Assembly: GCA_963783885.1 (NCBI GenBank)
Contig: CAWAPJ010000031.1
Span: 1-48,539, forward strand
Length of the DNA: 48,539 nucleotides
From: Waddliaceae bacterium
Lineage (GTDB): Bacteria; Chlamydiota; Chlamydiia; Chlamydiales; SLFE01
Direction: 5' to 3'
Numbering within the stretch: the first letter of the stretch is position 1; every line of letters begins with the position of its first letter. The notes below the pieces were generated by a model. That model searched no databases, was not told the origin of the DNA, and saw nothing but the letters and a program-made list of their open reading frames with translations. The translations under genes and the position numbers were made by a program. Positions 194-44,942 of this stretch are shown piece after piece.

Positions 194-360
194 CTAGTGT
201 CCAGTCCCAAAAGTTTTTTCGACAAATTCCCATTATAAGCGTCGCGATGAGTCGATCATAAGCGGCTTAATATTAATCAATATTGAGCCGCTTATGATCG
301 ACTCAGCCCGGCAGCTTAGAATGAGAATTTGAACAAAAAACTTTTGGGACTGGACACTAG
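194..360. mobile_element. Palindromic MITE/RPE-like element 1 (~165 bp)
   Basis: 26-bp perfect terminal inverted repeat CTAGTGTCCAGTCCCAAAAGTTTTTT (194-219 / 335-360), a second imperfect stem, and a 27-bp inner stem (248-274 / 279-305) with one T.G pair; CTAG at both ends. Confidence 0.75.
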
Positions 361-462
361 TGGCTATTGCCTTCGTCGCCAAATTCAAAATCTGAATCAC
401 TATCTCACCCCTCACAAAGAACACACCGGCAAATCACAAAACTGTGTCTTGCAATCTGATCT

Positions 463-918
463 CTAGTCTCTGCTTTCTGCTTTTCTCAGCGGTTCAAAGG
501 TGTAGCCGTTGATTATTACTGTTGCTGTTTTTCTGGTTTGTCTTAATTCTTTGATTTTTTCTTCGGAAATGCTGCCTTTCAGGGTGAATTTTTTAAGCTG
601 ATCAATTTTCATAATCAGGGGAACATCAGGGTCTAAATCATCATCCATTTCAATCGTTAAGTTCTTCAATTTTTTGTGATTTCTTAAATTGGATAAATCA
701 AAAAAAATTGTGCAGTCGACTAATTTCAATGAATTTAAATTTGGAAAATATTGCTTAATTGCTTTTTGATGACACTCCATAAGTGTCGCACTTTTTAAAT
801 GGAGTTCATTATGTGGAGTGGTTTGTCTTTTCGACAAAACATAATTAAAAGCCACGTTGGGAGGAGGAAATTCAGTCAATGTTCTTTTTGTCCGCCGTTT
901 GCTCACAAAAAAACTCAT
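463..918 (-). CDS. Hypothetical protein with short leucine-rich-repeat-like segments
   Basis: 151-aa AT-rich ORF with LxxLxL patterns (FPNLNSLKL, KKLKNLTI, QLKKFTL). Confidence 0.55.
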   Translation of the reverse strand: MSFFVSKRRTKRTLTEFPPPNVAFNYVLSKRQTTPHNELHLKSATLMECHQKAIKQYFPNLNSLKLVDCTIFFDLSNLRNHKKLKNLTIEMDDDLDPDVPLIMKIDQLKKFTLKGSISEEKIKELRQTRKTATVIINGYTFEPLRKAESRD

Positions 919-985
919 AAGTTCTCCGTTGTTGATTTGTGTAAAATAAATTTTAAGAATGGTTGATTATCATTGCAAGAGATTA

Positions 986-1016
986 GATTTGGAGAGAATT
1001 CATTTCCCTCCAAATC
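986..1016 (-). terminator. Hairpin immediately after the cyclophilin stop codon, putative terminator
   Basis: GATTTGGAGAGAA...TTCCCTCCAAATC inverted repeat 8 nt past the stop; weak U-tract. Confidence 0.4.
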
Positions 1017-1024
1017 ATGAGGGG

Positions 1025-1567
1025 TTATTTGACGGTGATTTTTAAAATCTTGACTTGGGTATTGGGTTTGTCGGACGCATTGGTTTCAAGATTTTGAATT
1101 TTATCCACAATGTCGTAGCCTTCTGTCACCTCTCCAAATATTGTGTGGCGTCCATTGAGCCAAGGAGTAGGAGCTGTCGTAATAAAAAATTGGCTTCCAT
1201 TTGTATTTGGACCCCGGTTAGCCATTGCCAGTATGCCCGGTTTATCGAAAGTAACATCTGAAGAAAATTCATCCTCGAATTCATTTCCCCAGATTGACTC
1301 TCCGCCTGTGCCGTTGCCTTGAGGATCTCCCCCCTGAATCATAAAGTCCTTGATGACCCGATGAAAGATCGTCCCCTTATAATACCCGTCTTTTGAGTGG
1401 GTGACAAAGTTTTCTACAGTTTTGGGAGCTATGCCCGGCATGAGGGTTATTTCAATATTTCCTTGGGTGGTTTCAAGCGTCACCACGGGATTTTTTGCCA
1501 TTTCTGTCTCCTTAGCTTGTAAAAAAGTTAGTGATAAAACCGCACTTAATACGACAAATAGCTTCAT
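1025..1567 (-). CDS. Cyclophilin-type peptidyl-prolyl cis-trans isomerase with N-terminal signal peptide
   Basis: [32 protein letters not shown] and HTIFGEV motifs; start moved to MKLFVV, which has GGAGGT upstream. Confidence 0.95.
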
Positions 1568-1709
1568 AATACCTCCTATTGGCGTAAATCTTGAGAAAGC
1601 ACGATTTATAATAATATCATGGATTTGGCTGTATTTCCATGAAAAAAAGGCATTTTTGATGCTTTGGCATGAAATTTTCTTATTCTCGAACAGAATGCGA
1701 GGATTGCTT

Positions 1710-2780
1710 ATGCTGACGACAAATCGTTCATTTAAATTGTTCATTATAGGGGTTGTATTAATTTTTGCCAGCCTCATTCCCTATTATTGGGGAGTCCATC
1801 AGGTCTCCACTAATACAGTTATTCGGGCTGCTCTGGATATAGGGTCGGGAGCGACCAAACTCAGAGTTGCTGAAGTCGATCTCAACAAAAATAAGATCGT
1901 CAAAACGATTGTCAATACGCAGATTTCCGTTCCCTATCAGTTGGCATTAAGCAAAAGCGGCAACCAGACGATAGATGAAAAAACTATGGAGCAGGGTATT
2001 GAGGCAATAAAAAAATTGAAGAAATTGGCTGTAGAAAATCAGGCCAAAAAAATTGTCGGAGTAGCTACGGCTTCATTTAGGAAAGCGCATAACGGCGAAG
2101 AATTCGCTCAAAGAATTTTTAAAGAAACCGGAGTTCCTGTTTTTATAGTCGACCAGAAAGATGAAGGTGAACTCGGATTTTATGCCGTTGAAGCGACAAC
2201 GCCTATTGATGAGCATAAGGTGATTGTTTGGGATATCGGTGGGGGAAGTTTGCAGCTAACAGCGATGGACAAAGAAGGTAATATTATCGTCTATCGGGGG
2301 CATGAAGCCTCAATCCCTTTTCGGCAATATGTGATCCAAAATATTCAGGGGCGGGATGTCAAAATTTACGAGACTCCGAATCCTATGACTCTGGATGAAA
2401 TGAATCATGCCGAAAAACACGCCAGGCAGCTTGCTGCAAGTGTCGACCAATTTTTCAAAGACAAGATTAAAAACCCGGAAACAAATGTTTATGGGATAGG
2501 TAGTATCTTCAGCTTGGGGATTGAACCGCTGGCAAAGAAAAATCCTTTTACTGCGCAAGATCTCACTGAGGCTGTCAAACCACTGGCGGGGAAAACCGAT
2601 GAAGAGATGGGCGGAGGCGAGTTTGCGAATGTGAAGGCCACAAATGCTCTTTTAGTTATCGGCTTTATGAAAGAACTGGATATCAAAAAAGTGACGGTTG
2701 TCGATGTTAACGTCGCCGATGGAGCCTTTTTTGTCAAAAAGTTTTGGAAGCCTGATGAAGCTATGATTCAAAAGGATTAG
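1710..2780 (+). CDS. Ppx/GppA phosphatase family (ASKHA) protein with N-terminal membrane anchor
   Basis: [23 protein letters not shown] and WDIGGGS motifs; hydrophobic N-terminus; no C-terminal HD domain; start moved to MLTTN. Confidence 0.85.
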
Positions 2781-2794
2781 GAAGGAGAATAATT

Positions 2795-3424
2795 ATGGAA
2801 ACTAAAGGGTTTTCTGTTGGGGAATTTGTGAAAAAAGGGTGGCATATGATGCGTGAACATATGGCCTTTTTTATCGGATTCCTGCTTGTTTATTTTGTAT
2901 TGTCTATTATTCCTCGCGTAATCACCTTAATTTATCCGCATATTCACGTAGGAATATTAGCAGTCATTCAAATTGTTTTTTTTATTTTAGCGTTTGTGGT
3001 GTGGATCGGATTTTTGAAATCTGCGCTTAAGGTGGTTGATGGAAAAAGTCTCACATATGCAGACCTTTTCAGCAGTTTTCCGATAATCGTGCAATTTTTT
3101 ATCGCATGGGTAATCTATGGGTTGATTGTCCTTGTCGGATTCATTCTGCTTGTCTTTCCGGCTGCTATATGGGGATCGCGCTATTTTCTGTGGCCCTTTA
3201 TTATTGTTGACAAAGGTGTCGGTCCGATAAAGGCTTTGGAAATGAGCGGGAAAATGACCATGGGAGTTAAATGGGACATTTTCATGCTCTTAATTGCGAC
3301 AACAATCATTACTTTGCTTGGTGTCTTGTGCCTTTTTGTTGGTTGGTTTGTCGCCATGCCCGCCGCGACTATAGCACAAGTTGCCACTTACAGAATGCTT
3401 GAATCTCAGCATCAAAATGTGTAA
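2795..3424 (+). CDS. Integral membrane protein (DUF975-like)
   Basis: Several TM helices, 'PFIIVDKGVGPIKALEMS' motif, GAAGGAG RBS. Confidence 0.7.
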   Translation: METKGFSVGEFVKKGWHMMREHMAFFIGFLLVYFVLSIIPRVITLIYPHIHVGILAVIQIVFFILAFVVWIGFLKSALKVVDGKSLTYADLFSSFPIIVQFFIAWVIYGLIVLVGFILLVFPAAIWGSRYFLWPFIIVDKGVGPIKALEMSGKMTMGVKWDIFMLLIATTIITLLGVLCLFVGWFVAMPAATIAQVATYRMLESQHQNV

Positions 3425-3431
3425 ACTTAAT

Positions 3432-3470
3432 ATCGCAGCGAGCAGGTATAACCCTGCCCGCTGCGATTTT
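3432..3470 (+). terminator. GC-rich hairpin with short U-tract (intrinsic terminator-like)
   Basis: ATCGCAGCGAGCAGG-TATAAC-CCTGCCCGCTGCGAT-TTT between the membrane-protein gene and the ABC ATPase gene. Confidence 0.65.
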
Positions 3471-3472
3471 CT

Positions 3473-4378
3473 ATGAGCGTGCCTTTAAAGATAGAACATC
3501 TGACAAAAAATTACGGTCCTTTGCGGGCCGTTGACGATGTGAGTTTTGATATTCAGGAAGGGGAGATCTTCGGTCTTTTAGGGCCTAATGGGGCCGGCAA
3601 GACTTCCATTATTTCCATCATCACGACGCTTGAGGAGCCGACAGGAGGAGCTGCCTCCGTTTATGGCTATAATGTAGCAGAAAATCCCAAACAGGCTAAA
3701 TATGTGACGGGATGCGTGCCCCAGGAGCTGGTTCATCACGGATTTTTTTCTCTAGAAGAGGTCTTAGCTTTCCAGTCGGGATATTATGGGAAGTGGGAAA
3801 ACAGCAAAAGGATTGAATATCTCATAGATAAACTCGATCTTCAGGCCCACCGTAAAAAGAGGGTCAAGGAGCTCAGCGGGGGGATGAAGCGCCGAATGCT
3901 GATCGCCAAAGCGCTAGTTCACGAGCCGAAGCTTCTCCTTCTTGATGAGCCGACAGCCGGCGTCGATATCGAACTGAGGTCGACTCTTTGGGACTTTTGC
4001 CGCGAGCTTCAAAAGCAGGGAGTGTCGATTTTGTTGACAACGCATTACCTCGAAGAGGCCGAAGCTCTTTGCGACAGAGTTGGCTTTTTAGACAAAGGAG
4101 AACTCAAACTTCTTGGAAAGCCGAAAGATCTCATCAAGCAGCTCACCGAAAGAGAAGTTGTCATGGTATTAAAAGCACCTGTTGCCCCTGTGGTGCACCC
4201 TCATCTGGTTAGTCAATCCGACCACCAGCTGACTTTCAGGTTTGCCTCTTCAAAAAGCATGGGCGACCTGATTGCCGAACTTCCTCTGGATATTCGAGGC
4301 GTACAGGACTTCATTATTAGGGAAGGTAAACTTGAACAAGCATTCGAACGGATTATTTATAAAAAACATGGATATTAA
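3473..4378 (+). CDS. ABC-2 type transporter ATP-binding protein (YadG-like)
   Basis: Walker A GPNGAGKT, signature LSGGMKRR, Walker B LLLLDEPT. Confidence 0.93.
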   Translation: MSVPLKIEHLTKNYGPLRAVDDVSFDIQEGEIFGLLGPNGAGKTSIISIITTLEEPTGGAASVYGYNVAENPKQAKYVTGCVPQELVHHGFFSLEEVLAFQSGYYGKWENSKRIEYLIDKLDLQAHRKKRVKELSGGMKRRMLIAKALVHEPKLLLLDEPTAGVDIELRSTLWDFCRELQKQGVSILLTTHYLEEAEALCDRVGFLDKGELKLLGKPKDLIKQLTEREVVMVLKAPVAPVVHPHLVSQSDHQLTFRFASSKSMGDLIAELPLDIRGVQDFIIREGKLEQAFERIIYKKHGY

Positions 4379-6735: not shown

Positions 6736-6826
6736 AACTTCATAAAAGCATAAATTAGAATAATTTATAATAAGTTTTCTAAATATTTAAATTTTAATAA
6801 AATAGTTTTAGATAGGAGGAAATTAT

Positions 6827-9088: not shown

Positions 9089-9099
9089 GGTGATTAAGA

Positions 9100-16607: not shown

Positions 16608-17849
16608 ATGACAAAAAAAAGAGTAGTCATCACCGGCTTGGGGGTTGTTTCCTGTTTTGGAAATGATGTGGAAGGCTTTATCGATGCTTTAATGGCTGGA
16701 AAAAGCGGAGTGAGATCGATCACTGAATTTCCGTGCGATGATTTTCCTACCCGATTTGCGGCTAAAATTTCAAATTTCGATCCCGACGGATATATCGACA
16801 AAAAGCAGGCAAGAAGGGTCGATAACTTTATCGCCTATTCTCTGGTTTCAGGAAAAAAAGCTCTTGAATCGGCAAAAATTGACAAAGAAAGCAAACTGGA
16901 CAAAAAACGATGCGGGGTTCTGATAGGTTCCGGCATGGGCGGACTCGACATGTTCTCTAATGCCGTTGAAACGCTAAAAGATAAAGGCATCGGCCGCATG
17001 TCGCCATTTTTCATTCCCTACACGATCACGAATATGGGAGGGGCGCTGCTGGCTATGGAATATGGATTCATGGGGCCCAATTATTCGATTTCGACAGCCT
17101 GCGCGACAGGCAACTACGCCATTGTCAGCGCTCTTAGACATATCCGCGATGGTGAAGCCGATTTAATCGTATGCGGTGGAGTCGAAGCCCCGATCAATGC
17201 CGTTGGTTTGGCCGGATTTTGCGCATGCAGGGCTTTGTCGACAAGAAATGAAGCCCCCGAAAAGGCTGCCCGTCCATGGGATAAAGACCGGGATGGCTTC
17301 GTTATGGGAGAGGGAGCGGGCGTGCTTGTTCTTGAATCCCTCGAACATGCTAAGGCTCGTGGAGCCAGGATCTATGGCGAGGTTCTGGGAGGGGCCTTTT
17401 CTTGCGATGCCCACCACATGACTATGCCTCGCGAAGACGGAGAAGGAATTGCTCTTTGCATCGACAAGGCGCTCAAGGATGCCGATGTTTCACCCTCCGA
17501 AGTGAATTACATTAATGCTCACGCGACTTGCACTCCTCTTGGGGATATGGCTGAAGTAAATGCCGCGAAAAGGATTTTCAAAAACCCTTCTAAAATTTAC
17601 ATGAATGCGACAAAATCCATGATAGGCCATGGCTTGGGAGCGGCGGGAGGCCTGGAAGCCGTCGCGACTGTCATGCAGATGAAGCGAAAAGAAATTCATC
17701 CCACAATAAATCTGGACAATCCTGAAGAGGGCCTCGATTTTATGACTCCGACAAAAGCAACAGATTGCGACATTCAAGTTGCAATCTCCAACTCCTTTGG
17801 CTTTGGCGGCCACAACGCCAGTGTTGTTTTCAAGTCCTACAAGGAATAG
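16608..17849 (+). CDS. fabF: 3-oxoacyl-ACP synthase II
   Basis: RVVITGLG, TACATG, INAHAT, GHGLGAAG and SNSFGFGGHN motifs. Confidence 0.97.
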   Translation: MTKKRVVITGLGVVSCFGNDVEGFIDALMAGKSGVRSITEFPCDDFPTRFAAKISNFDPDGYIDKKQARRVDNFIAYSLVSGKKALESAKIDKESKLDKKRCGVLIGSGMGGLDMFSNAVETLKDKGIGRMSPFFIPYTITNMGGALLAMEYGFMGPNYSISTACATGNYAIVSALRHIRDGEADLIVCGGVEAPINAVGLAGFCACRALSTRNEAPEKAARPWDKDRDGFVMGEGAGVLVLESLEHAKARGARIYGEVLGGAFSCDAHHMTMPREDGEGIALCIDKALKDADVSPSEVNYINAHATCTPLGDMAEVNAAKRIFKNPSKIYMNATKSMIGHGLGAAGGLEAVATVMQMKRKEIHPTINLDNPEEGLDFMTPTKATDCDIQVAISNSFGFGGHNASVVFKSYKE

Positions 17850-17853
17850 TAAG

Positions 17854-18276
17854 ATGGAACATTCCTATGGAATTATCCCATTAAAGCGGCGCGGAGAGGA
17901 TTGGTATGCCTTTATCGTCCATCGGACAAAGTCCGGAGGATTTTGGGAGTTTCCTAAGGGGCATATTGATGAAGGAGAGACTTCTCTTGACGCTGCTGAA
18001 AGAGAGCTGAAAGAAGAAACAGGCTTAACAATTGAAAGAATGCTCGAATTTAATCCCATCACGGAATATTACGAATATGAATGGCATGGAAAAACCATTC
18101 CTAAGGAAGTTCATTATTATCTGGCGCTTGTTGGAGGAGAAATTGCCCTGCAGCCGAAAGAAGTTGATGAGGGTAAATGGGTTCTCTTAAGAGAGGCTGA
18201 AAAACATATGACTCACGATACAAGCCGTTCTATTTCCAAAAAGGTCGCTTCACTTCTACTTAACCTAAGCCCCTGA
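17854..18276 (+). CDS. NUDIX hydrolase (Ap4A hydrolase-like)
   Basis: Nudix box PKGHIDEGETSLDAAERELKEETGL; follows fabF as in Chlamydia. Confidence 0.9.
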   Translation: MEHSYGIIPLKRRGEDWYAFIVHRTKSGGFWEFPKGHIDEGETSLDAAERELKEETGLTIERMLEFNPITEYYEYEWHGKTIPKEVHYYLALVGGEIALQPKEVDEGKWVLLREAEKHMTHDTSRSISKKVASLLLNLSP

Positions 18277-18425
18277 TTGCTACCTAAACCTCAGCTAGAG
18301 CTTACACGAGTGCGCCAGATACAACTGTAGCGTCGACGGCAAGGGTAATCCCTTGCCAAGTCACTACAGGCAGTAGATGGTGTGCTCGTGTAAGCTCTAG
18401 CTGAGGTTTAGGTAGCAATCAGGGT
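18270..18425. mobile_element. Palindromic MITE/RPE-like element 2 (~155 bp)
   Basis: 40-bp perfect inverted repeat (18271-18310 / 18385-18424), inner stems CTGTAG/CTACAG and GGCAAGGG-TAAT-CCCTTGCC; CTAAG directly repeated at 18265-18269 and 18426-18430. Confidence 0.8.
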
Positions 18426-18473
18426 CTAAGATAATTTTCTGGATATTTATTTCCTGATGAATATATTGAGGAT

Positions 18474-19467: not shown

Positions 19468-20460
19468 ATGAAGATTCAGGGGTTTGCAGCAGAAAAATCG
19501 GCAGCTGAGCTGACACCTCTTGCTTATGATATTCCTGAGCTTGGGATCGAAGATGTTTTGATCGACATCACGCATTGCGGGATCTGTCACAGCGACATCC
19601 ATCTCATCGACGATGATTGGCAAATGAGCACATACCCTTTTATTCCCGGGCACGAAATCATCGGGATTGTGCGCGACGTTGGCAGCTTGTCATCGAATTT
19701 GTTTGTAGGTCAAAAAGTGGGGGTGGGATGGCAATGCGGGGCTTGTTTTTATTGCCAATGGTGCCTCAAGGGAATGGAAAATTTATGTGACCACCACCAG
19801 CCGACATGTGTTGGCAGGCATGGGGGGTATGCTGATGCGATTATAGTTGATAGCCGCTTTGCTTTTCCAATTCCCGATAATATGGATTCGGCAGGTACAG
19901 CTCCTCTTTTTTGCGGCGGAGCGACCGTTTATTCCGCTCTGAAAAACTCAGGCGTCAATTCCAGCTCGCGTGTTGGTGTTCTTGGTATTGGAGGTTTGGG
20001 ACATCTGGCTCTGCAGTTTGCAAAAGCAATGGGCGCTCATGTGACAGCTTTTTCTACATCATCTTCAAAAGAAAAAGAAGCTCTCTCACTCGGCGCCGAT
20101 CAATTTCTTCTCAGCCCGGATTCAAATCAGGAAGCATTCGATGTGATTCTCTCTACTGTGACTGCAAGTCTTGACTGGGAAAAATGGCTGTCACTTATTG
20201 GCCCCAGAGGAACTCTTTGTTTTGTAGGCGCTGCCCCGGGAACTATCGACGTGGGCATTCAGAGTCTGGTGTCTAAAGAGCGGAAGGTTTCGGGAAGTAT
20301 GATTGCAGACAGGCATACAATCTTAGAAATGCTAAGCTTAGCTTCGAGAAAAGATATCAAAGCAGTCGTGGAGGAGTATCCGCTAAAAGATGTGAACCAG
20401 GCAATTTCTCGTGTCAGGGAAAACAAAGTTCACTACCGAGCCGTTTTGACTATTTCGTGA
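19468..20460 (+). CDS. Zn-dependent NAD(P)H aldehyde reductase / cinnamyl alcohol dehydrogenase family (Ahr-like)
   Basis: CGICHSD, GHEIIG, CxxCxxC(x7)C and GIGGLGH motifs. Confidence 0.92.
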   Translation: MKIQGFAAEKSAAELTPLAYDIPELGIEDVLIDITHCGICHSDIHLIDDDWQMSTYPFIPGHEIIGIVRDVGSLSSNLFVGQKVGVGWQCGACFYCQWCLKGMENLCDHHQPTCVGRHGGYADAIIVDSRFAFPIPDNMDSAGTAPLFCGGATVYSALKNSGVNSSSRVGVLGIGGLGHLALQFAKAMGAHVTAFSTSSSKEKEALSLGADQFLLSPDSNQEAFDVILSTVTASLDWEKWLSLIGPRGTLCFVGAAPGTIDVGIQSLVSKERKVSGSMIADRHTILEMLSLASRKDIKAVVEEYPLKDVNQAISRVRENKVHYRAVLTIS

Positions 20461-22936
20461 TAATTCCTGCTTTTTTCAACATTTTTTTTGCACCGAATTC
20501 TGTTAACAAAAATTGGGTTCCTGTTATTGTCCAGGCCATTTCCACATGCTTATCATTAATCAGGTCATTCAGGCAGATATAAAGGTTGTCGTCTTCGATA
20601 ATTTGCCTGTTAACAGTTTTGCAAAAGTCGAAGATCAGTTCTTCGAGTTTCGAATACATGTGAAAGGTTACAGATACTTCTTGATCTAATACTCTAGACA
20701 AATTCTCATGAATGATTGTTTGAAGAATTTTGCTGACAGCCCCCTTTCCATTCGAATAGGAGTAGAGGGGTCCCTTTGACTTTAGTGGAAGACGATGAAA
20801 GGTGAAAGGTATTCCGTTTTCGTGTATAGAGGCTAGTGTTAGGATAAGAGTTTTATAAAATGTTTCATATTCCTGTTTTCTGAGAAAATCGATAATCCAT
20901 GAAAATTGGTAGGCGGTTATTGAAACGTCTTTTTGATTCGTTTGATCAAGAAGGTCAAATAATAACCTGTTTTCTCTTAATTTTTCTTTTATGAATGACA
21001 AAGGATAACCTAGCAGAGCTTGACATTGCTTATCGTCATAGGGGCAATCCTCAATCATGTTTTCAAGGACTTGAGAGTTGATTCCTTTGGGCAAGTGGTC
21101 CCTTGTCGGCGGTATAAAAACTTGTGGAAACGTCCCGGGAAACAACACGCATCTCTTCGGAGATCGAGTGAGTATTTTAGATGACTTGCCATTTATATTC
21201 TTAAGCGCCCTTCGAATTATGAGGGTATCCTCATCAAGATCAAAAAATTTTCTCCTATCGAGAATATATCGAGAAAGAAAATAAACTTCGTTTTTATTTT
21301 CCAAGGTTCCCAGTTTATAATTGCATATCGAAAGGAATTTATTATTGAATTCTTTCTGCGAAGAATTCCCGATTTGCAATGCCTCCTTAACTATCTGGAA
21401 AATGATTTTGAATTCCTTTTCGCCAAAATAAGCTGAAAGAAATGGGAGTGCATGTTGAAGAATTTCTTCATCAATATTTTGATCTTGTACAAATATCGAC
21501 AGTTTGAGTATATCCGCTATGCTCCAATGGGTCAAAGATGATGTTTGTAAAGAATTTGTCAGTTCCGTGATGTTGTTTCGTTTCTTTTTGCCTTCTATAG
21601 CTCTAAATTTTTCAAACAGTACTTTTATTGTATTCTTATTGTCTTCTTCCAATGTGATTATTTGATTTAAAAAGGGGGTTATTTCCCTGCGCTCTATTGG
21701 ATCTTTGAATTTTGCTAATGTTTTGAGAATAAATTTTATGTCATCAGCAGACATTTTCGGTGTTCTTAATGAATTTGCTAGTTCGACAATTTCCCTGCGC
21801 TCTATTGGATCTTTGAATTTTGCTAATGTTTTGAGAATAAATTTTATGTCATCAGCAGACATTTTCGGTGTTCTTAATGAATTTGCTAGTTCGACAATTT
21901 CCCTGCGCTCTATTGGATCTTTGAATTTTGCTAATGTTTTGAGAATAAATTTTATGTCATCAGCAGACATTTTTGGTGTTCTTAATGAATTTGCTAGTTC
22001 GACAATTTCCTGTCTTTTATGTCTATCTTTTATTTTTGCCAAAAATTTCATAATTCTTTGAAGAACAAAAAGATCCATTTCTGGTTTTTTTAAAGAAATG
22101 ACCTGATTTGTAATTTCATCAATTTCTGCTGGATCTTCGATATTTTGGAATGCTTGATGTATCATCCCTATTGCGGGCATTGCGGCAGTAGTAAGATCCG
22201 GTAGTTTCAAGGATTGAATCACTCTTATATATACCCTGCGTCTTGTGGAATCTTTGATTTCTGCTAAACCTTTAACAATCACTAAAACATGCCAATTATC
22301 CATTTTCGGTGTTTTGAATGAATTTGCTAGTTTGGCAATTTCTTGCCGCTTTTCTTTCTTGTCGATATTGACCAACTGCGTAAGAATTTTCACCAGGTGG
22401 CAATCCCACTTTTCTGTTATTTTTAGAAGATTGATAAGATCAATACATTCTTTTAGCTCTCCTGGATTATTGACTTTAGCTAATGCGTTAAGAAGTTCAA
22501 TTATGCTAGAGGCGCTAATCACTGGTGCGTTTAAAGAATTTATCAACGTGACTATTTCCTTTCTCAGCTCTGGATTTTTTATTGCTGACAAATGAGATAC
22601 TAGATTACCTAAATCAAAACCATTTGCTATTGGTCTTTTTAAAGATTTTGCCTGGTAGACAATTTCTTTATAATCATCTTTATCCAAAAGTGTTATGGCC
22701 GTTATGAGATGTGTAATATTTGACTCGGATTCGCTGTCATCGATGAGAATTTTTACCAAATCAATGAGTTCTTTGAACTTTTTATCGAATAGACTTTTCT
22801 CAACAGACGACATATTTGCAAGCTGTCCTGTGGAAATAAAGATTCTTGCGACTTTAGCTATTCTCTTTTCAACTTCATTGTTTGTTTTTAGTTGCTGAAC
22901 ACTTGTGTGATTGGGCCTTGTTCTTTCAACTTGCAT
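20450..22936 (-). CDS. 828-aa helical 36-residue repeat protein, candidate secreted effector
   Basis: Long AT-rich ORF with roughly a dozen degenerate 36-aa repeats, three of them identical. Confidence 0.8.
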   Translation of the reverse strand: MQVERTRPNHTSVQQLKTNNEVEKRIAKVARIFISTGQLANMSSVEKSLFDKKFKELIDLVKILIDDSESESNITHLITAITLLDKDDYKEIVYQAKSLKRPIANGFDLGNLVSHLSAIKNPELRKEIVTLINSLNAPVISASSIIELLNALAKVNNPGELKECIDLINLLKITEKWDCHLVKILTQLVNIDKKEKRQEIAKLANSFKTPKMDNWHVLVIVKGLAEIKDSTRRRVYIRVIQSLKLPDLTTAAMPAIGMIHQAFQNIEDPAEIDEITNQVISLKKPEMDLFVLQRIMKFLAKIKDRHKRQEIVELANSLRTPKMSADDIKFILKTLAKFKDPIERREIVELANSLRTPKMSADDIKFILKTLAKFKDPIERREIVELANSLRTPKMSADDIKFILKTLAKFKDPIERREITPFLNQIITLEEDNKNTIKVLFEKFRAIEGKKKRNNITELTNSLQTSSLTHWSIADILKLSIFVQDQNIDEEILQHALPFLSAYFGEKEFKIIFQIVKEALQIGNSSQKEFNNKFLSICNYKLGTLENKNEVYFLSRYILDRRKFFDLDEDTLIIRRALKNINGKSSKILTRSPKRCVLFPGTFPQVFIPPTRDHLPKGINSQVLENMIEDCPYDDKQCQALLGYPLSFIKEKLRENRLLFDLLDQTNQKDVSITAYQFSWIIDFLRKQEYETFYKTLILTLASIHENGIPFTFHRLPLKSKGPLYSYSNGKGAVSKILQTIIHENLSRVLDQEVSVTFHMYSKLEELIFDFCKTVNRQIIEDDNLYICLNDLINDKHVEMAWTITGTQFLLTEFGAKKMLKKAGIITK
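21681..22010. repeat. 108-bp tandem repeat, 3 copies (coding, 36 aa)
   Basis: Units start at 21681, 21789 and 21897; only one synonymous difference (ATTTTCGG vs ATTTTTGG). Confidence 0.97.
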
Positions 22937-39158: not shown

Positions 39159-39173
39159 AATTTTAATTATAGC

Positions 39174-39787: not shown

Positions 39788-39799
39788 TGTTGATTACCC

Positions 39800-39973: not shown

Positions 39974-40073
39974 GGATTTTCTCCTGATTTATACCACAAA
40001 TTATAAAGATACGGGAGGTTTAGAGCAATGGAAATTTTGAGGGGCCTCAGACGATGAGTTTTTAAAGAAATTA

Positions 40074-40103
40074 TTGACAAATATAGAGAAAATTTATTAA
40101 AAT
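40074..40103 (+). promoter_or_regulatory. Putative sigma66/sigma70 promoter
   Basis: TTGACA-N18-TAAAAT, 27 nt upstream of the ATG at 40131. Confidence 0.5.
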
Positions 40104-40130
40104 TTAACAAACTTTTATTAAAATATAATT

Positions 40131-41234
40131 ATGAATCCTACAGATAGCATTAATTCATATCCCGGCGTGCATCAAATTCATGACACAAATCAGGGCAGCC
40201 CTGGGGTCCAGAGGCAGGAAAGGCTGCCGAAAGACGTCTTGGAGGCCTTAGAGGATGATGATCTCGAACGGGCAATGGCCTTGCTTAGGCAGTATGAGAA
40301 TGAAGGCCTCGAAGGTGAGAATGAATTTTTGGACAAATTGATGAATATGCTCATGAGTGCGATAACATTTAAATTTATCGTCGCTAAGCCTGCCAAGGAA
40401 AGGGCAAAACAAGTCAAAAAACCTCAAAATCAGCGTACCAGCGTTAAAATGAGATCTTTGGCCAAAGGGTTCATCCGTATGCTTGCATCTCCGATGAGAG
40501 TTTTGGGAAAAGCCTTGTTTAAAGGGTGGAAAGCACTTTCCGGGATGAGCCGCGCCGCAAACCGTTATTTGATTATGCCTGCCGTTCGATTTGCAGCCGC
40601 TCCCTTTATCCAATCATACAAGGCGCTTAGCGAGCGTTTCGGCAACGCCCTCCGATTCGCAAAGGAAATTTCGGATCGAGTGAAAACGCGTTTCGAAGAA
40701 ATTCGAGAAAAAGCGTCGGAAAAGATCGAAAAAGCAGCCCATGAAATACGCGAACTAGCAAAGCCTATAAAAATGTGGCTGACCCATAAATTCAATGAAT
40801 TTGTCGAGAAGCAGCAATGGATTAAAGAAACTCTGGGGCAGCAAATCCAGCCAATCGTTCATGCCGCCCATATGCTCATAAATCTTATGTCGGTTGCGCT
40901 TGTCCCCTTTGCCTTCGGAGCCGGGCAAATGAGGAGAGGGGGCAAATTGATTAAAAAGGGGATGGATAAAGTTAAAGGGGCTTTTAACCGAGCGAAAAAT
41001 TGGATCAAAGGCAAATTCAAAAAAGGATATGGTTATATTCAAGCGGTTGTTCAAGCATGCGTTTTAGCGATCGAGCGCGTTTGGCTTTTGATTTTGGAAA
41101 AAGTGCTGCTATTTTTGAAAAAACTATGGTTATGGCTCTTAGCACCTTTTAAGCTTCTTGCACGGATTCTCATGGCGATTGCAAATCGTCTCAACAATTA
41201 TTTACAAAAATCCATACGTCGTCTATATAATTAA
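40131..41234 (+). CDS. Hypothetical protein with long basic amphipathic helices
   Basis: 367-aa ORF with its own promoter-like sequence; polar N-terminus followed by K/R-rich amphipathic helices. Confidence 0.7.
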   Translation: MNPTDSINSYPGVHQIHDTNQGSPGVQRQERLPKDVLEALEDDDLERAMALLRQYENEGLEGENEFLDKLMNMLMSAITFKFIVAKPAKERAKQVKKPQNQRTSVKMRSLAKGFIRMLASPMRVLGKALFKGWKALSGMSRAANRYLIMPAVRFAAAPFIQSYKALSERFGNALRFAKEISDRVKTRFEEIREKASEKIEKAAHEIRELAKPIKMWLTHKFNEFVEKQQWIKETLGQQIQPIVHAAHMLINLMSVALVPFAFGAGQMRRGGKLIKKGMDKVKGAFNRAKNWIKGKFKKGYGYIQAVVQACVLAIERVWLLILEKVLLFLKKLWLWLLAPFKLLARILMAIANRLNNYLQKSIRRLYN

Positions 41235-41307
41235 TTCAAACTTGAGTAAACTTTTTATGTTTACAATTATTAACAACGGAGGGATTTAAACCCCCCCCCA
41301 CTTTACT

Positions 41308-41456
41308 GGTAAGCATTCGGCGATATACGTTCCCGGATAACTTGCGAGGGCTTTGGTCTGCTTTGGCAACCCCTAAAGGGGTTGCCTGTATCAGGCGCCT
41401 TGCAGCTCTTCGCCCGCGCTGCGTTCTCCAGGAACGTATATCGCCGAACCCTTACC
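41308..41456. mobile_element. Palindromic MITE-like element 3 (149 bp) with 6-bp target-site duplication
   Basis: 30/34 terminal inverted repeat GGTAAG...CTTACC; TTTACT repeated at 41302-41307 and 41457-41462; apical hairpin GGCAACCCCT-AA-AGGGGTTGCC. Confidence 0.8.
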
Positions 41457-41508
41457 TTTACTGGTGGTTTAAATTATCAGTGTAATAGCTTGAAGCGGAG
41501 AATGAATA

Positions 41509-41811
41509 GTGGATATAAGGACTCATTTTATTGAATTGTTTAAAATGGAAGTCGTCATTATCGGCGGCTGCCTATGTCTTGCTACGGCGGCAAGGAACTT
41601 AGGGAAAAGCAAAATTAACTTTAGTGATGAAATGATCAGCAGATTGGGAAGGGCTATTCTTGGAAATTTAGGGGGCATTTTGCTCTTTAATGCATTTAAT
41701 TTCACTTTTCCTGTGCACACGTCTAAACTCAGGGTTTTCAAAGCGAAATATGGAACTTTATTCGTTTTCTCAATACCGGTTCTGACATTTACAGGGGCCA
41801 TGATCAAATAG
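41509..41811 (+). CDS. Hypothetical small membrane protein
   Basis: 100-aa ORF with three hydrophobic segments; GGAG upstream; converges on rsmE. Confidence 0.45.
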   Translation: MDIRTHFIELFKMEVVIIGGCLCLATAARNLGKSKINFSDEMISRLGRAILGNLGGILLFNAFNFTFPVHTSKLRVFKAKYGTLFVFSIPVLTFTGAMIK

Positions 41812-41812
41812 A

Positions 41813-42520
41813 CTACTTGTTCATCAAATGGACAATAAGCCCTGCAGCGGTCATTGCGGCGGTTTCAGTTCTTAATATGTTAGGGTTCAGCTTGACTCCT
41901 ACCGCTCCCAAAATTTCAAACTTTTCGATTTCCGATTTTTCAAATCCGCTCTCCGGTCCAACAAAAAAACCGGTTTTGGCATCCGGTTTGAAGACTGCTT
42001 GAAGAAATGGGGCCGACTTGCGAATGTCGCCGAAATAGAATGGCGCTTCAAGCCTCGTCCATTTTTCTAATTCAGGTTTTATTATGAGGCTTGGAAGCCA
42101 TAGCCTCCCGCATTGTTTCAAGGCTGATATGCAAAGGATTTTTAACCGCTCCAGCTGAGCGGGCTTGATTTCTTTCTTGCCGCTTTTTTTTCCGGGGAAA
42201 AGCCAAAACTGCGTGACTCCGAGTTCTGTTCCTTTTTCGATAATAAAATCCAATTTTTGCGGACGTGTAAAGGCCTGGGCCAGGATAATCTCTTGAGAAT
42301 GTTTTTTATATTGTCGTGTTGAGGCTACGCTCAGTATAGCCTGTTTTTTTTGAATCTCTTTAACGACGGCTTTAGCCAGTACTCCTTGACCGTTGATAAG
42401 CTCGACGGCATCTCCCTGCTTGACTCTCATAACGTTAGCAAGGTGATGAAATTCTTTATCCCTTATTTCAAGCGATGCACCTTCTGATATCGGGCTGTCT
42501 ATAAAGAACCGGTCAATCAT
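41813..42520 (-). CDS. rsmE: 16S rRNA m3U1498 methyltransferase
   Basis: HHLANVMR, EKGTELGV, KQCGR, VGPESGF and ILRTETA motifs. Confidence 0.95.
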   Translation of the reverse strand: MIDRFFIDSPISEGASLEIRDKEFHHLANVMRVKQGDAVELINGQGVLAKAVVKEIQKKQAILSVASTRQYKKHSQEIILAQAFTRPQKLDFIIEKGTELGVTQFWLFPGKKSGKKEIKPAQLERLKILCISALKQCGRLWLPSLIIKPELEKWTRLEAPFYFGDIRKSAPFLQAVFKPDAKTGFFVGPESGFEKSEIEKFEILGAVGVKLNPNILRTETAAMTAAGLIVHLMNK

Positions 42521-42596
42521 GGAGCCGCCTACAACATTCCGGCAAAACCGGATTTTTAGCTATTTTGCTGACCTTTGCCATTTGGCTCCATAAAAG

Positions 42597-43844
42597 TTAC
42601 TTTTCTTTGACGACTATATTGTGATTGTTAATGGAGATATCAAGCTCCAGGCGTTGGTGTCGACTTTTATAGAGTCTAAGTTTTTGCATGAAATTTCGAA
42701 AACGGTTGCGCCACTGCTCTTCATTGCTGGCATTGGGAAGACCTCCATGAGGAGAATTTTCACGGTATTGTTTGCTTAGAAAGGCGACATAACGATTTTC
42801 TAAAATTTGCGGTTGGATGAATTCGACGCTCCATTTGAGACTGGTTCCATTTTCCTGAGGAAGCGCTATAATGGATATCTCTATATAATCTTTGACGATT
42901 TGAATAAATAATTGGCTCACTTCATATGCGTATACATTCATATTTAGGAAAGGGATGCCGTCTTTTATATCAATGAGTTCATTTGTTTGGAGGGTGAATG
43001 TTTTCGGGTTGACTTGTCCCAGATGTTCGGTCGGATAATATACATGAATGGGGAGGGGAGTCTCAAGGGGGATGAATTTCTTGCGTAAAAATTCAATCCA
43101 CATTTGTTCTGCGTTGGGGTCGTTAATCGGCTGGAACGGAGGATTGAGAAAGGGAATATAGACTTTCTTCCAGCTTGTTGGAACTTTGAAGTAAATAACA
43201 TCATCGGAAAACGCCCCTGTTTCCGGCGGTTTTAGGCTGGCAAGGTCTTCTTTCGTGATGTTGTTGAGATTGAATATCAGCTCCAGCCCTTCAAGTTTGA
43301 CCTTTTCTACCTGTTCTTCGGGTCCGCTTAAGGTTTGCATGAGTTTTTCCGGCCAAATACCAAGAAACATGTAGGATCTGGGTATATTTCCCACGGGCTG
43401 TTCGACCTCGATGGGGACTTTTGTTGTGACAAATTTGCTTAATTTAATGATAAATTCCTGAGAAGAGGTGCTTTTAATACTTTTTGAAAGATCGATGTTG
43501 GGGTTTAAGCTGATGATGTTTTTTTTGCTGATTTGTACAAGCCATTCATTAGGGGCATTGTCCGCATCAAGAATAACTTCGATATCTCCAGGTTCTAAGC
43601 TTTCAATGACCTTTTTCGTTCCCGAAACTGTAATGGTTGCCCGTCTTTTAAGAATTCCGTTCGGAAGAAGTCCGTCAATGGTTTTATTGGGTTGAAGGTT
43701 AATGATGCGGATGGGAACGCCGACAAGGGTTTTTGTCTCGTTGATCGACTGATTGACAAACCACCAGGCGACTACGGCAATAACAATGGCGATAAGCTTT
43801 TGCTTCCAATGATTCGCTATTAATTGCGAGAAAGGTTTACTCAC
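42597..43844 (-). CDS. ybbR: YbbR/CdaR-like regulator of diadenylate cyclase
   Basis: HWKQKLIAIVIA TM helix and YbbR-like beta segments; GTG start overlaps the dacA stop. Confidence 0.8.
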   Translation of the reverse strand: MSKPFSQLIANHWKQKLIAIVIAVVAWWFVNQSINETKTLVGVPIRIINLQPNKTIDGLLPNGILKRRATITVSGTKKVIESLEPGDIEVILDADNAPNEWLVQISKKNIISLNPNIDLSKSIKSTSSQEFIIKLSKFVTTKVPIEVEQPVGNIPRSYMFLGIWPEKLMQTLSGPEEQVEKVKLEGLELIFNLNNITKEDLASLKPPETGAFSDDVIYFKVPTSWKKVYIPFLNPPFQPINDPNAEQMWIEFLRKKFIPLETPLPIHVYYPTEHLGQVNPKTFTLQTNELIDIKDGIPFLNMNVYAYEVSQLFIQIVKDYIEISIIALPQENGTSLKWSVEFIQPQILENRYVAFLSKQYRENSPHGGLPNASNEEQWRNRFRNFMQKLRLYKSRHQRLELDISINNHNIVVKEK

Positions 43845-44631
43845 TTCTATACCACCGTTTGAAACGTTCAATGAGGTTGAAAGATTTTTCAAATTTCATT
43901 TGAGGGGGATTAAAAATGCTGCCTAAAATTCCTTTGAACCTGTCCATTTTCACGCCTCGGGTCATGATGCCGTCTCTGGCGATTGCGACTCTTCCTGTCT
44001 CCTCGGAAACGACAATAACGAGAGCGTCGGATAGTTGGCTGATACCCAAAGCTGCCCGGTGGCGCGTCCCCATTGATTTGGAAAGCTGTGAAGTGTCGTC
44101 TGAAAGGGGAAGGATTGTGGAAGCAGAAATAATTTTGGTCCCGCTTATAATCACCGCTCCGTCATGCAGCGGTGTGCTTGTTGAAAAAATCGTCTCGAGA
44201 AGTTCGGGGGAAAAGGTGGCATTGACAATGACGGCTTTTTGGGCATACTCATCTAAGGAGTCCTGATTTTCCAGCAGGACGATAGCGCCGATTTTTTTTT
44301 CTGCCAGCCGATAGATGCTGTGGGTGATTCCGTTGAGGAATTTATCAAACTCTGTCAATTCCCGGTATTTTTTTCCTTTGACGCTCAATTTTGATAAGGC
44401 CAGCCTCAGCTCGGGCTGAAATATTATCAGCAGAGCGATTACGGCCACATTGACAAAATAATACATCAGTTTTTGAAGGACGGGAAGCTGGAGCCAATAG
44501 ACAATAGCGTACAGGGCCAGGAACGCAAGAATGCCGTAGAGGAGGTCCATTGCCCGGGTGTTCCAGAAAAAGGAAAGCAGGTAATAGATGATCAAAGCGA
44601 TGATGAAAATTTCTAAAAGCGATATAAACAT
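43837..44631 (-). CDS. dacA: Diadenylate cyclase CdaA/DacA
   Basis: Three TM helices, IFQPELR, TPLHDGA, GTRHRAALG and VSEETG motifs. Confidence 0.96.
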   Translation of the reverse strand: MFISLLEIFIIALIIYYLLSFFWNTRAMDLLYGILAFLALYAIVYWLQLPVLQKLMYYFVNVAVIALLIIFQPELRLALSKLSVKGKKYRELTEFDKFLNGITHSIYRLAEKKIGAIVLLENQDSLDEYAQKAVIVNATFSPELLETIFSTSTPLHDGAVIISGTKIISASTILPLSDDTSQLSKSMGTRHRAALGISQLSDALVIVVSEETGRVAIARDGIMTRGVKMDRFKGILGSIFNPPQMKFEKSFNLIERFKRWYRSE

Positions 44632-44698
44632 CTTCTCGTCCGCTAGTTAAGGGCTGCCTGGCAATCTGTTGGTTGAATTTGTAAGGAACCCCGGCTCA

Positions 44699-44853
44699 GC
44701 CCGCATACCACACAGCCTCTCGGCCAATTTGTTTGCCGATTTTACATAAAACTCTCACCGGTCTAGTTTTACAACTATGCCGTTCCTCGAGTTTTTGCAA
44801 ACTCGGACAAACATCTTGCCCAACTTGCTTCGAGATCCTGGAGAAATGCGGAC
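44699..44853. mobile_element. Degenerate palindromic MITE-like element 4 (~155 bp)
   Basis: Ends GCCCGCAT / ATGCGGAC flanked by TCA on both sides; inner arms TGTTTGCCGATTTTACATAAAACTC / GAGTTTTTGCAAACTCGGACAAACA; apical TAGTT-TTAC-AACTA. Confidence 0.55.
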
Positions 44854-44942
44854 TCAGCCCTATATTGGCCGATTACTAGATTATAATCAACGTTTTACTT
44901 GAGGCTTTCAAGGCCCTTGAGTTATGATAAAACGTTTAAGGT

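Follow-up and report, generated by a model that had tools for sequence, protein, structure and literature searches.

Rod-like palindromic elements in a Waddliaceae contig are probably MITEs of several insertion sequence families

Results

Palindromic elements in the window

The window, i.e., the whole stretch of DNA analyzed here, is contig CAWAPJ010000031.1 (positions 1-48,539) of Waddliaceae bacterium assembly GCA_963783885.1, a chlamydia-like genome of 2.16 Mb with a completeness of 88.9%. This genome is labeled G000 below; G001 is a congener, G003 belongs to a related genus, and G002 is a further relative. The contig starts inside an rRNA operon, and four palindromic intergenic elements, E1 to E4, are distributed along it. 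The window also holds two elements that were absent from the earlier note on this DNA, an outer palindrome (E0) and a mini-element of family F2 of about 70 nt. The features are as follows.

1-103, plus strand: 5S rRNA gene, 3' part (Rfam RF00001, 70.7 bits; gathering score 38)
114-443, unstranded: E0 outer palindrome (about 163 nt when E1 is left out), with arms at about 114-193 and 361-443
194-360, unstranded: E1, MITE with CTAG at both ends (194-197 and 357-360) and near-perfect terminal arms
18265-18269, unstranded: left target-site duplication (TSD) of E2, CTAAG, at the element edge
18270-18425, plus strand: E2, 156-nt MITE, consisting of positions 1-135 of an insertion sequence (IS), i.e., terminal inverted repeat (TIR) and tnp-distal hairpin, joined to its last ~20 nt (other TIR)
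18426-18430, unstranded: right TSD of E2, CTAAG, at the element edge
41301-41308, unstranded: left TSD of E3, CTTTACTG (8 bp), at the element edge
41309-41455, plus strand: E3, member of a ~160-nt MITE family; this copy has 147 nt and lacks 12-13 nt internally; ends GTAAGCATTCGG.../...CCGAACCCTTAC
41456-41463, unstranded: right TSD of E3, CTTTACTG (8 bp), at the element edge
42520-42590, unstranded: F2 mini-element, ~70-nt internally deleted derivative; ends GGAGCC.../...GGCTCC
44695-44699, unstranded: left TSD of E4, CTCAG, at the element edge
44700-44852, plus strand: E4, 153-nt degenerate copy; MITE family ends CCCGCWTTTCTCACA
44853-44857, unstranded: right TSD of E4, CTCAG, at the element edge

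The four rod-like palindromes described in the earlier note are real. Folded as single-stranded DNA, E1 reaches -69.8 kcal/mol (z -20.2), E2 -68.8 kcal/mol (z -16.7), E3 -46.2 kcal/mol (z -9.0), and E4 -25.6 kcal/mol (z -4.6), and none of the 200 shuffles of each element reached its folding energy. The elements are 147 to 167 nt long, and no ORF reaching 80 aa is listed within any of them. The arms of E1 pair over 47 nt at 89% (194-240/314-360), with inner arms of 32 nt at 91% (243-274/279-310); the inverted-repeat search gave 58 nt at 88% for E2 (18265-18322/18373-18430) and 34 nt at 88% for E3 (41308-41341/41423-41456), while E4, the weakest of the four palindromes, is not among the 24 inverted pairs listed for the window. 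An Rfam search of the whole window returned 5S rRNA as the sole match at gathering score, and E1 to E4 match no family.

All four elements are multi-copy: BLASTN against the 2.16-Mb genome located 5 loci for E1, 36 for E2, 24 for E3, and 7 for E4. The matches of each element belong to its own family only, consistent with the previous claim that no primary sequence is common to the four. The GGCAA...TTGCC apex that E2 and E3 were thought to share is a coincidence of the E3 copy in the window, the E3 family consensus at that place being CGACAACCCC..GGGGTTG. TIRs and TSDs accompany all four families. The flanking direct repeats that had been noted do exist, with three of them in need of refinement (E3 has the 8-bp CTTTACTG and E4 has CTCAG). 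The window was said to be devoid of transposase genes, which agrees with the ORF list, as far as inspection of such a list can go.

E2 and its IS982-family parent

E2 derives by internal deletion from an IS982-family IS of 1146 bp, whose copies in G000 are numerous and nearly identical. This IS has a single 279-aa ORF, ends ACCCTGATTGCTACC.., a 5-bp TSD, and at least 17 copies in the genome; all 17 left ends examined extend into one and the same IS of ~1146 bp (94.9-99.9% identity); of these ends, one is broken by an IS3-family IS and four reach contig ends. The 279-aa ORF scores 155.2 bits against NF033520 (IS982; cut-off 130), and the IS5 models stay under their own cut-offs on the same transposase. 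Nine of nine complete copies inspected are bordered by 5-bp C-NNN-G duplications (CTAAG three times, CGAAG, CATTG, CTATG, CAATG, CTCAG, and others), and E2-type MITE copies have 5-bp duplications too. Members of the IS982 family are about 1 kb long with one ORF, TIRs ending in AC, and direct repeats of 3-9 bp; with 1146 bp, one ORF, its TIRs, and a 5-bp repeat, the parent IS falls within this rule. Four distant IS982 members have a related TIR, ..ACCCAAGTTGCTACC.

At the E2 site the congener G001 has one pentamer, TCAAG, and reads TTAACTCAAGATAATTTTC; G002 is likewise without E2. Only the last codons of ORF 17779-18276 extend into E2, whose first bases supply the stop codon (18274-18276). E2 is rod-shaped from end to end because it consists of two TIRs and the ~115-nt hairpin that the parent IS carries inside each TIR.

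MITEs derived from IS982 elements have been published before. The MITE MITECca01 and ISCca4, its parent of the IS982 family, come from the Cardinium endosymbiont of Oedothorax gibbosus, and the passages of PMC9769881 on these elements presume that intact parental copies are the mobilizers. E2 resembles the MITECca01/ISCca4 pair, as these passages present it, in that an abundant IS982-family IS of a repeat-rich intracellular bacterium has given rise to a non-coding derivative with its inverted repeats. It differs in length (156 bp as compared with ~240 bp for MITECca01) and in its composition of essentially one IS end, i.e., TIR plus the ~115-nt conserved hairpin, and the other TIR. In PMC9769881, the term "secondary structure" is absent and "palindrom" occurs once, in a figure legend that describes the inverted repeats as palindromic; its passages on the elements mention no subterminal hairpin.

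E1 and the outer palindrome

E0 lies just 3' of the 5S rRNA gene, with E1 sitting at its apex; it appears as an inverted pair (135-178/380-423) and with a score of 168 over 114-443 in a self-reverse-complement scan. Behind a second 5S copy, an E0-type outer palindrome is again found on the 3' side (C8:19518-19839), with an E4-family element at its apex instead of E1.

The full copies of the E1 family in G000 (contigs C31 and C36) have CTAG at both ends, and solo ends (C9 and C25) have it at their single end; the copy on C2 has CCAG/CTGG instead. More than 20 places in G003 have an E1-like core, and CTAG flanks most of the 20 copies fetched. G003 also has an IS630 transposase (149 bits, cut-off 100) in an element with ends CTAGTACTCTGTCCCA / CTAGTACTTCGTCCCA, which match the E1 end CTAGTGTCCAGTCCCA.. 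at 13 of 16 positions; the likeness is confined to the terminal ~16 nt, the interiors being unrelated. The IS630 model NF033545 has matches in G003 and G002 and none in the 88.9% complete G000, where the mobilizer of E1 may have been lost. Insertion at the TA within CTAG with duplication of TA is what we take to be the IS630/Tc1-mariner-type signature. E1 is probably a MITE of this IS630/Tc1-mariner type, using CTAG as its insertion site and duplicating TA; a TA duplication and a terminal CTAG are not separable here because CTAG is palindromic. With five or more further families or single elements of G000, E1 shares a length of 161-167 nt, CTAG flanks, and near-complete palindromy, and in these respects it resembles MITEs of this type; the difference is that an IS630 transposase with similar ends was found in G003, of a related genus, and none in G000. 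In size and shape, the Correia/NEMIS elements of Neisseria are an analogue of E1.

E3 and E4

Twelve full-length E3 copies are present in G000, of which six have a perfect 8-bp TSD, two match at 7 of 8 bp, and one matches at 6 of 8 bp. Ends starting GTAA(GC) and 8-bp direct repeats are, we presume, the signature of the IS66 family, and E3 is probably an IS66-type MITE as judged from its GTAAGC ends and 8-bp TSD. G000 has an IS66 element of its own (tnpA, tnpB, and tnpC; 350 bits on NF033517) with ends GTAA[T/G]CGTCATT...; E3 and this element have GTAAGC alone in common, and past GTAAGC the E3 ends match the IS66 elements of neither G000 nor G001. We searched 401 genomes of the order for an autonomous partner with the same ends and found none. 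Allowing up to 2 mismatches, the 21-nt end pattern of E3 has 32 matches in G000, 23 in G001, and one or two in each of 6 of the 399 other genomes, and none of the listed matches in G000 and G001 is at an IS66 locus. It seems that the E3 family is old, diverged, and limited to this genus among the genomes sampled. The orthologous site in G001 lacks E3, but it has diverged and is not a clean empty site.

E4 is a MITE with a 4-5-bp duplication (TTAA, CTAG, or CTCAG). The copy in the window is degenerate, with ~6-7 terminal matches, and the family consensus CCCGCWTTTCTCACA is clear; elsewhere, TSDs of the family are TTAA twice, CTAG, and near-matches. Where the window has CTCAG[E4]CTCAG, G001 has a clean empty site with one CTCAG (...CCCCGGCTCAGTCTGATATTGG...). 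We counted 34 end motifs in G000 (control 8) and 46 in G001 (control 7); in three other genomes, the motif is no commoner than the control. End pairs 0.7-3 kb apart were found in none of 5 genomes, and a search for an IS1380 transposase as the E4 partner gave no score above cut-off.

A transposase-bearing element with matching ends, one of the checks proposed for these elements, is at hand for E2 (the IS982-family IS); for E1 its ends are similar only, and for E3 and E4 none was found. Contrary to what the earlier note named as its refutation, the elements are neither single-copy nor without empty sites in a relative, and E2 has the ends of an element that bears a transposase.

Further palindromic families

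Strong palindromes are 150-180 nt long at 43 of 145 loci, and grouping by sequence sorts 49 elements of 125-210 nt into 19 clusters. The F2 mini-element of the window matches at least 8 F2 copies elsewhere at 75-90% identity, and the ends of family F9 are those of a multi-copy transposase-bearing IS in G001. That at least 19 unrelated clusters of G000 arrive at rods of 150-177 nt may reflect a host-level or mechanistic constraint on length and shape, acting on mobilization or tolerance.

Discussion

Assignment of the elements and alternatives

We consider, with a probability of roughly 0.85, that E1 to E4 and the two further elements of the window are MITEs which transposases from other loci move in trans, and that they represent at least four lineages independent of one another. 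The window's MITEs, being short and non-coding, would either derive from insertion sequences or mimic them. The earlier proposal of non-autonomous, multi-copy fold-back elements from several unrelated families that move in trans is supported by copy numbers, TSDs, and unoccupied sites in the congener, which is clean at E4, has a single pentamer at E2, and lacks E3. Its other part, a single undescribed system, is not supported, as the families bear the end and TSD signatures of different known IS families (E4 is without assignment). Such a system would mean that one structure-recognizing enzyme moves all rod-like elements of ~150-165 nt irrespective of their primary sequence, for which the gathering of at least 19 unrelated palindrome clusters in so narrow a size range speaks. 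We regard it as very unlikely: TSD lengths differ by family (2/4, 5, and 8 bp), the end motifs are each typical of a different IS family, E2 demonstrably derives by deletion from an IS982-family IS, and F9 has its ends in common with a transposase-bearing IS. The elements are also short, palindromic, multi-copy, and from an intracellular bacterium, just as Rickettsia palindromic elements (RPEs) and REPINs are; RPEs and REPINs, however, are not defined by the TIR and TSD signatures of DDE IS families. Mobilization of single-stranded hairpins by a Y1 (HUH) transposase, of either the REPIN/RAYT or the IS200/IS605 type, would suit the hairpin-rich shape, and G000 does have one Y1_Tnp gene (157 bits), with nine matches in G001, six of them full-length. 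The sole gene of G000, however, has a TnpB-like ORF (as judged by eye) behind it, which is the IS605 architecture and not the REPIN/RAYT arrangement; the matches between this gene and E1-E4 are only 9-12 nt long, with E values of 0.01 and above. HUH elements have neither TSDs nor TIRs, both of which all four families possess, and REPs are 20-40 nt long as opposed to 150-165 nt. We found no RAYT link and give this explanation next to no credence.

The remaining alternative, which we think improbable although somewhat less so than the two above, is that the host has exapted the elements as structured RNAs or as terminator or stabilizer hairpins, and that they persist on account of folded transcripts that regulate neighboring genes; such a regulatory, transcript-folding role has been proposed for ERIC, YPAL, and Correia elements. 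The strong predicted folds of E1 to E4 are in its favor, and so are the compensatory differences in E3 arms (12 of 38 pairs across 16 copies) and the position of E2 at the 3' end of ORF 17779-18276, which takes its stop codon from the element and for which the better-folding strand is the sense strand. On the other hand, among nine E2-type MITE copies the favored strand has no consistent orientation relative to the flanking ORFs, sites are unoccupied in the congener, there is no Rfam match, and compensatory differences among MITE subfamilies may stem from different source elements. Please note that MITEs from several transposon families, as we read these elements, are an ordinary kind of thing.

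Hairpins at the ends of the IS982 clade

The ~115-nt hairpin is found at both ends of the chlamydial IS982 clade, 67-71 nt from the TIR motif, and is shared with relatives of 55-100% amino acid identity (other chlamydial MAGs and metagenomes); in L103, L036, and L108 (about 51-53% to 66% identity), its apex is variant, and 0 of 4 distant IS982 members (33-37% amino acid identity, ~930 bp) have such hairpins. In the alignment of 15 ends, compensatory changes occur in 39 of the 45 pairs, and the fraction of cells that are paired is 94.2%, as compared with 63.6±1.3% in shuffles (0 of 500 reach 94.2%) and 35-48% in slid controls. Besides these covarying stems, the conserved features are the apex AAGGGTAATCCCTT, the internal-loop motifs CAGAT[A/G]C / AGATG, and G·T pairs that are ten times as frequent as A·C (60:6) on the inward-reading strand. 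At all 15 ends this strand gives the better RNA fold, with a mean advantage of 18.6 kcal/mol. Both RNA and DNA as the folding molecule fit the G·T excess, since single-stranded DNA also tolerates G·T. We sought a canonical terminator or promoter at these hairpins and found none.

Going by these sequence comparisons, we tentatively suggest, in a joint proposal that we hold to be possible but somewhat more doubtful than not, that the hairpins inside both TIRs, which form the body of E2-type MITEs, form a single-stranded structure that is under selection and has its own function and, more broadly, that the convergence of at least 19 clusters on rods reflects a length or shape constraint. The most likely putative role is that of an RNA fold in transcripts reading inward from either side, insulating the transposase gene; alternatively, the hairpin may be a folded-DNA site used in transposition. 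Against an insulator role stand the missing canonical terminator or promoter and the inconsistent orientation of E2-type MITE copies relative to neighboring ORFs. A precedent is the terminal stem-loop of IS200, which terminates impinging transcripts (as summarized in a passage of PMC3196728); it lies within an IS end and affects transcripts coming from outside, as is proposed here for the hairpins of the IS982 clade. IS200 is a Y1/HUH element without TIRs, whereas the IS982 clade is of the DDE type and has, at each of its two ends, a hairpin of far greater length (~115 nt); these two hairpins are homologous and their role is putative. The hairpin would fold in RNA reading into the element, as an insulator against impinging transcription, and E2-type MITEs would inherit it passively from the parent IS. 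The more interesting result lies outside the window, in a parent transposon with unusually well-conserved folded ends.

Four rod-like palindromic elements of the window

Four rod-like palindromic elements (E1 to E4) were located in the window, and their boundaries and duplications were fixed by aligning copies together with their flanks:

E1, 194-360: palindromic element with CTAG at each end
E2, 18270-18425: palindromic element, flanking repeat CTAAG / CTAAG
E3, 41309-41455: palindromic element, flanking repeat CTTTACTG / CTTTACTG
E4, 44700-44852: palindromic element, flanking repeat CTCAG / CTCAG

The palindromic character described in the earlier note was confirmed. A repeat search of the window returned long inverted arms for E1 (47 nt outer, 32 nt inner), E2 (58 nt), and E3 (34 nt); the 24 inverted pairs listed for the window do not include E4. 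All four fold significantly as single-stranded DNA (z-scores of -20.2, -16.7, -9.0, and -4.6 for E1 to E4, respectively), with none of 200 shuffles of each folding as well as the native sequence. The flanking direct repeats are also real, except that the TTTACT and TCA originally noted are only portions of longer duplications. An Rfam scan of the window had a single match, to a 5S rRNA gene of which the 3' portion is present (1-103). In the genome to which the window belongs as contig C31 (Waddliaceae bacterium, GCA_963783885.1, hereafter G000; 2.16 Mb in 46 contigs, 88.9% complete), BLASTN found five loci for E1, 36 for E2, 24 for E3, and seven for E4.

Origin of E2 by deletion from an IS982-family element

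MITEs make up only a minority of the E2 matches in G000. Each of the 17 left ends that were examined runs on into one element of ~1146 bp at 94.9 to 99.9% identity; one of them is split by an IS3-family IS and four reach contig ends, as is common where assemblies break in repeats. The element starts ACCCTGATTGCTACC and has one protein product of 279 aa, which reaches 155.2 bits against the IS982 model of NCBIfam (cut-off 130); the closest relatives of this transposase are in chlamydial MAGs, the nearest of them labelled Waddliaceae. Duplications of 5 bp (C-NNN-G) flank all nine complete copies inspected. E2 consists of IS positions 1-135 plus the final ~20 nt of the IS, i.e., it is a deletion derivative of this IS982-family element. 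Five E2-like copies of 154 to 156 nt are present in G000, together with three "type B" MITEs of 159 to 161 nt from the opposite IS end, as well as a number of shorter deletion forms. MITEs derived from IS982 have a precedent in Cardinium, as published in PMC9769881.

The split copy (L003, G000 C5:63388-66000) is interrupted by a ~1.5-kb IS3-family IS with an OrfA of 106 aa and an OrfB of 296 aa (178.6 bits on NF033516). In the window, the ORF at 17779-18276 has its stop codon (18274-18276) inside E2, and in comparison with the congener genome G001 the E2 insertion swapped out the final residues of the encoded protein.

Hairpin ends of the parent IS and its chlamydial clade

The parent IS carries a ~115-nt hairpin directly inside each of its ~21-nt terminal inverted repeats (TIRs), and this layout with a hairpin at both ends was found again in related ISs of further chlamydial MAGs and of metagenomes. 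In relatives of 55 to 100% amino acid identity the apex AGGGTAATCCCT lies 67 to 71 nt from the TIR motif, and the hairpin arms contain the motifs CAGAT[A/G]C and AGATG; variant apexes occur in L103, L036, and L108, three relatives whose identity is about 51-53% to 66%, and a Parachlamydiaceae record has one TIR-like end without a hairpin (z -0.5). Four distant plasmid-borne IS982 members (33 to 37% amino acid identity, ~930 bp, related TIR) had no hairpin of the ~115-nt type in any of the four, and the hairpins are therefore regarded as a clade-specific addition. The rod architecture of E2 is thus inherited from the hairpin ends of its parent IS982 clade.

We aligned 15 ends, namely transposase-upstream and transposase-downstream ends from nine source loci plus the E2 of the window. 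RNAalifold predicted 45 pairs, with compensatory changes in 39 of them and a covariation term of -15.4. Paired cells amounted to 94.2%, whereas the 500 shuffles gave 63.6 ± 1.3% and never attained the native value; please note that the 15 ends are kin, some near-identical, so that such cell counts exaggerate the number of independent events. The slid-register controls, in which 35 to 48% of cells were paired, and the pair-type number are unaffected by this kinship. When each end is read 5'→3' starting at the terminus and going inwards, G·T outnumbers A·C by 60 to 6 on that strand, at both ends. This inward-reading strand also gives the better RNA fold in 15 of 15 ends, with a mean gain of 18.6 kcal/mol.

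The identical bias at both ends fits RNA that enters the element from either side better than a replication-strand effect, and the hairpins may act on transcripts entering from outside; a hairpin of this effect exists in IS200, reported in PMC3196728 to stop impinging transcripts. G·T is tolerated in folded DNA too, and such an RNA insulator gains no support from the MITE copies, whose orientation relative to the flanking ORFs is not consistent (mixed among nine E2-type copies). Nor does it gain support from the promoters and terminators predicted for the IS: their counts were at the shuffle level, with no canonical terminator or promoter at the hairpins. In our literature searches we found no description of structured ends for IS982-family elements.

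Four IS982 ends in G000 (C2:84637, C1:99873, C11:26821, and C8:107506) lack the hairpin and keep the basal bases, as would fit a palindrome excised between direct repeats of GAGCT. The F7 palindromes (169 to 171 nt; G000 C35:5523-5693, C4:15025-15193, and C10:99434-99508) have ends, AACCCGTGATTGTNACC, that resemble the TIR of the IS982 clade and a CAGATGG motif inside; F7 may derive from a second lineage of this clade.

Relationships of E3, E1, and E4

Members of the E3 family measure ~160 nt and have the ends GTAAGCATTCGG. Among 12 full-length G000 copies, the 8-bp duplications are perfect in six, match at 7/8 in two, at 6/8 in one, and at 5/8 in three. A duplication of 8 bp together with GTAA(GC) ends is the signature of IS66, and by its ends and duplications E3 is probably an IS66-type MITE. 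G000 holds one IS66 with tnpA, tnpB, and tnpC (350 bits), and its 23-nt TIR has only GTAAGC in common with E3. Among 31 relatives, E3-type DNA was found only in G000 and its congener G001; the 21-nt end pattern occurs 32 times in G000 and 23 times in G001, and among 399 further genomes of the order only six have it, once or twice each and always with two mismatches. One family copy (C6:2194) shares its flanks with G001, and its insertion is therefore older than the split of the two species. E3 copies share 67 to 89% identity with a fixed polarity, and a 16-copy alignment has compensatory differences in 12 of 38 predicted pairs, which could reflect either selection or different source elements. 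The GGCAA..TTGCC apex, earlier taken as common to E2 and E3, is not conserved across the E3 family. Two inverted E3-family copies surround a 235-aa ORF at G000 C25:12670-13758 (L004) in a composite-transposon-like arrangement; the ORF has no obvious transposase features.

CTAG at both ends is common to E1 and at least five other palindromic families or single elements of 161 to 167 nt in G000, where no match to an IS630 transposase was found. In G003, which belongs to a different genus of the family, an E1-like core at 80 to 82% identity occupies more than 20 places, and most of the 20 copies fetched have CTAG flanks. This genome contains a frameshifted transposase of the IS630 family (149 bits against a cut-off of 100), and the ends of that IS, CTAGTACTCTGTCCCA and CTAGTACTTCGTCCCA, equal the E1 end CTAGTGTCCAGTCCCA at 13 of 16 positions. 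The E1-like copies of G003 have two discrete end types, a and b. Arm-to-arm ("fold-back") copying as the source of their symmetry is excluded by the presence of all four end combinations (a/a, b/b, a/b, and b/a).

The ends of the E4 family are CCCGCWTTTCTCACA, and its duplications are TTAA (twice), CTAG, near-matches, and the CTCAG of the window copy. Of five genomes, only G000 (34 versus 8 in the control) and G001 (46 versus 7) have an excess of the end motif. No pairs of E4 ends 0.7 to 3 kb apart were found in the five. IS1380 was considered as a parent and rejected, with no match above the cut-off in the five genomes and weak matches having other TIRs.

Orthologous sites and the region downstream of 5S rRNA

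In G001 the orthologous E4 site reads CCCCGGCTCAGTCTGATATTGG with a single CTCAG, i.e., a clean empty site, and the E2 site reads TTAACTCAAGATAATTTTC with one pentamer; the related genome G002 is also without E2. E3 is absent from G001, where the spacer has diverged. The empty E2 site of G001 is followed, 9 bp downstream, by a different insert of 1.75 kb (C4:956067-957823, L016/L018), with ATAATTTTC repeated at both borders and an IS5-family transposase inside (227.7 bits). A 334-nt stretch of it is 97.6% identical to G000 C35:5701-6032, and the flanking genes have a lower identity of 86 to 90%. An IS5-family IS with hairpin ends was considered for G001 and rejected: the insert is composite, and intact IS5 copies from the G001 and G000 lineages have TIRs of 18 to 25 nt only and no hairpins.

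E1 sits at the apex (CAATAGC/.../GCTATTG) of a ~163-nt outer palindrome at window 114-443. The second 5S copy, on contig C8, again has the outer palindrome 3' of it (C8:19512-19842), with the same apex occupied by an E4-family element. In G001 (L031, L033), one copy of the 5S-downstream region carries an IS66, and in the other the left arm is cut at CTAG by a sequence starting like the CTAG-ended palindromic family F3. The stretch directly 3' of 5S rRNA is a hot spot for insertions. A second instance of nesting at a palindrome centre was observed in L072 (G001 C4:719420-719603), an E4-family copy with a ~40-nt CTAG-ended mini-palindrome at its central CTAG.

Palindromic elements across the genome

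A self-reverse-complement local-alignment scan of G000 returned 145 loci above a score of 30 (the maximum in 1500 shuffled windows being 24.8), a lower bound like all counts of this census, as degenerate copies of the E4 grade escape the scan. The lengths peak at 100 to 120 nt (48 loci), which we take to be mainly IS982 end hairpins, and at 150 to 180 nt (43 loci); elements of 125 to 210 nt (n = 49) fall into 19 sequence clusters. Strong palindromes from the 19 unrelated clusters bunch at 150 to 177 nt.

Several other repeats were observed. The palindromic family F2 has 8 to 12 copies of 162 to 167 nt with ends GAGCCACTTGCAAAA, and a ~70-nt mini-element of the window (42520-42590, ends GGAGCC/GGCTCC) belongs to it as a form with an internal deletion. 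F9, a palindrome of 329 nt (G000 C19:13113-13441), has 27-nt ends (CAGGGAAATTGCAT[A/G]AAGAAATTATTT) in common with a multi-copy IS of G001 (L088) that encodes a 394-aa transposase. Repeated coding segments (21681-22345) of the 828-aa window ORF 20450-22936 (-) match three to seven other places in G000 and look like a paralogous gene family.

Overall reading and significance

E1 to E4 are new members of known MITE kinds; the earlier interpretation was right that they are MITE-like in kind and wrong in treating them as one undescribed system. They could instead be read as REPINs served by a RAYT. However, the sole Y1 transposase of G000 is followed by a reading frame that, by eye, starts like TnpB, as in IS605-type elements, and its locus has matches of only 9 to 12 nt to E1 to E4 (E of 0.01 and above); the REPIN/RAYT reading therefore fails. 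As judged by titles and the opening of abstracts, no description of MITEs in Chlamydiae, Waddlia palindromic repeats included, was found among the papers listed by our literature searches.

Annotators should mask these repeats and label them as MITEs of IS982, IS66-like, and IS630-like types. Such MITEs account for contig breaks, changed gene ends (e.g., the stop codon within E2), and variable intergenic spacers in environmental chlamydiae. The interesting lead for mobile-element biology is this IS982 clade of chlamydiae, whose two ends both carry long, covarying, and strand-biased hairpins. E2 is a concrete example of a MITE taking its rod-like shape from its parent, and the clade offers a tractable case of how an IS may shield itself against outside transcription, or use folded DNA.
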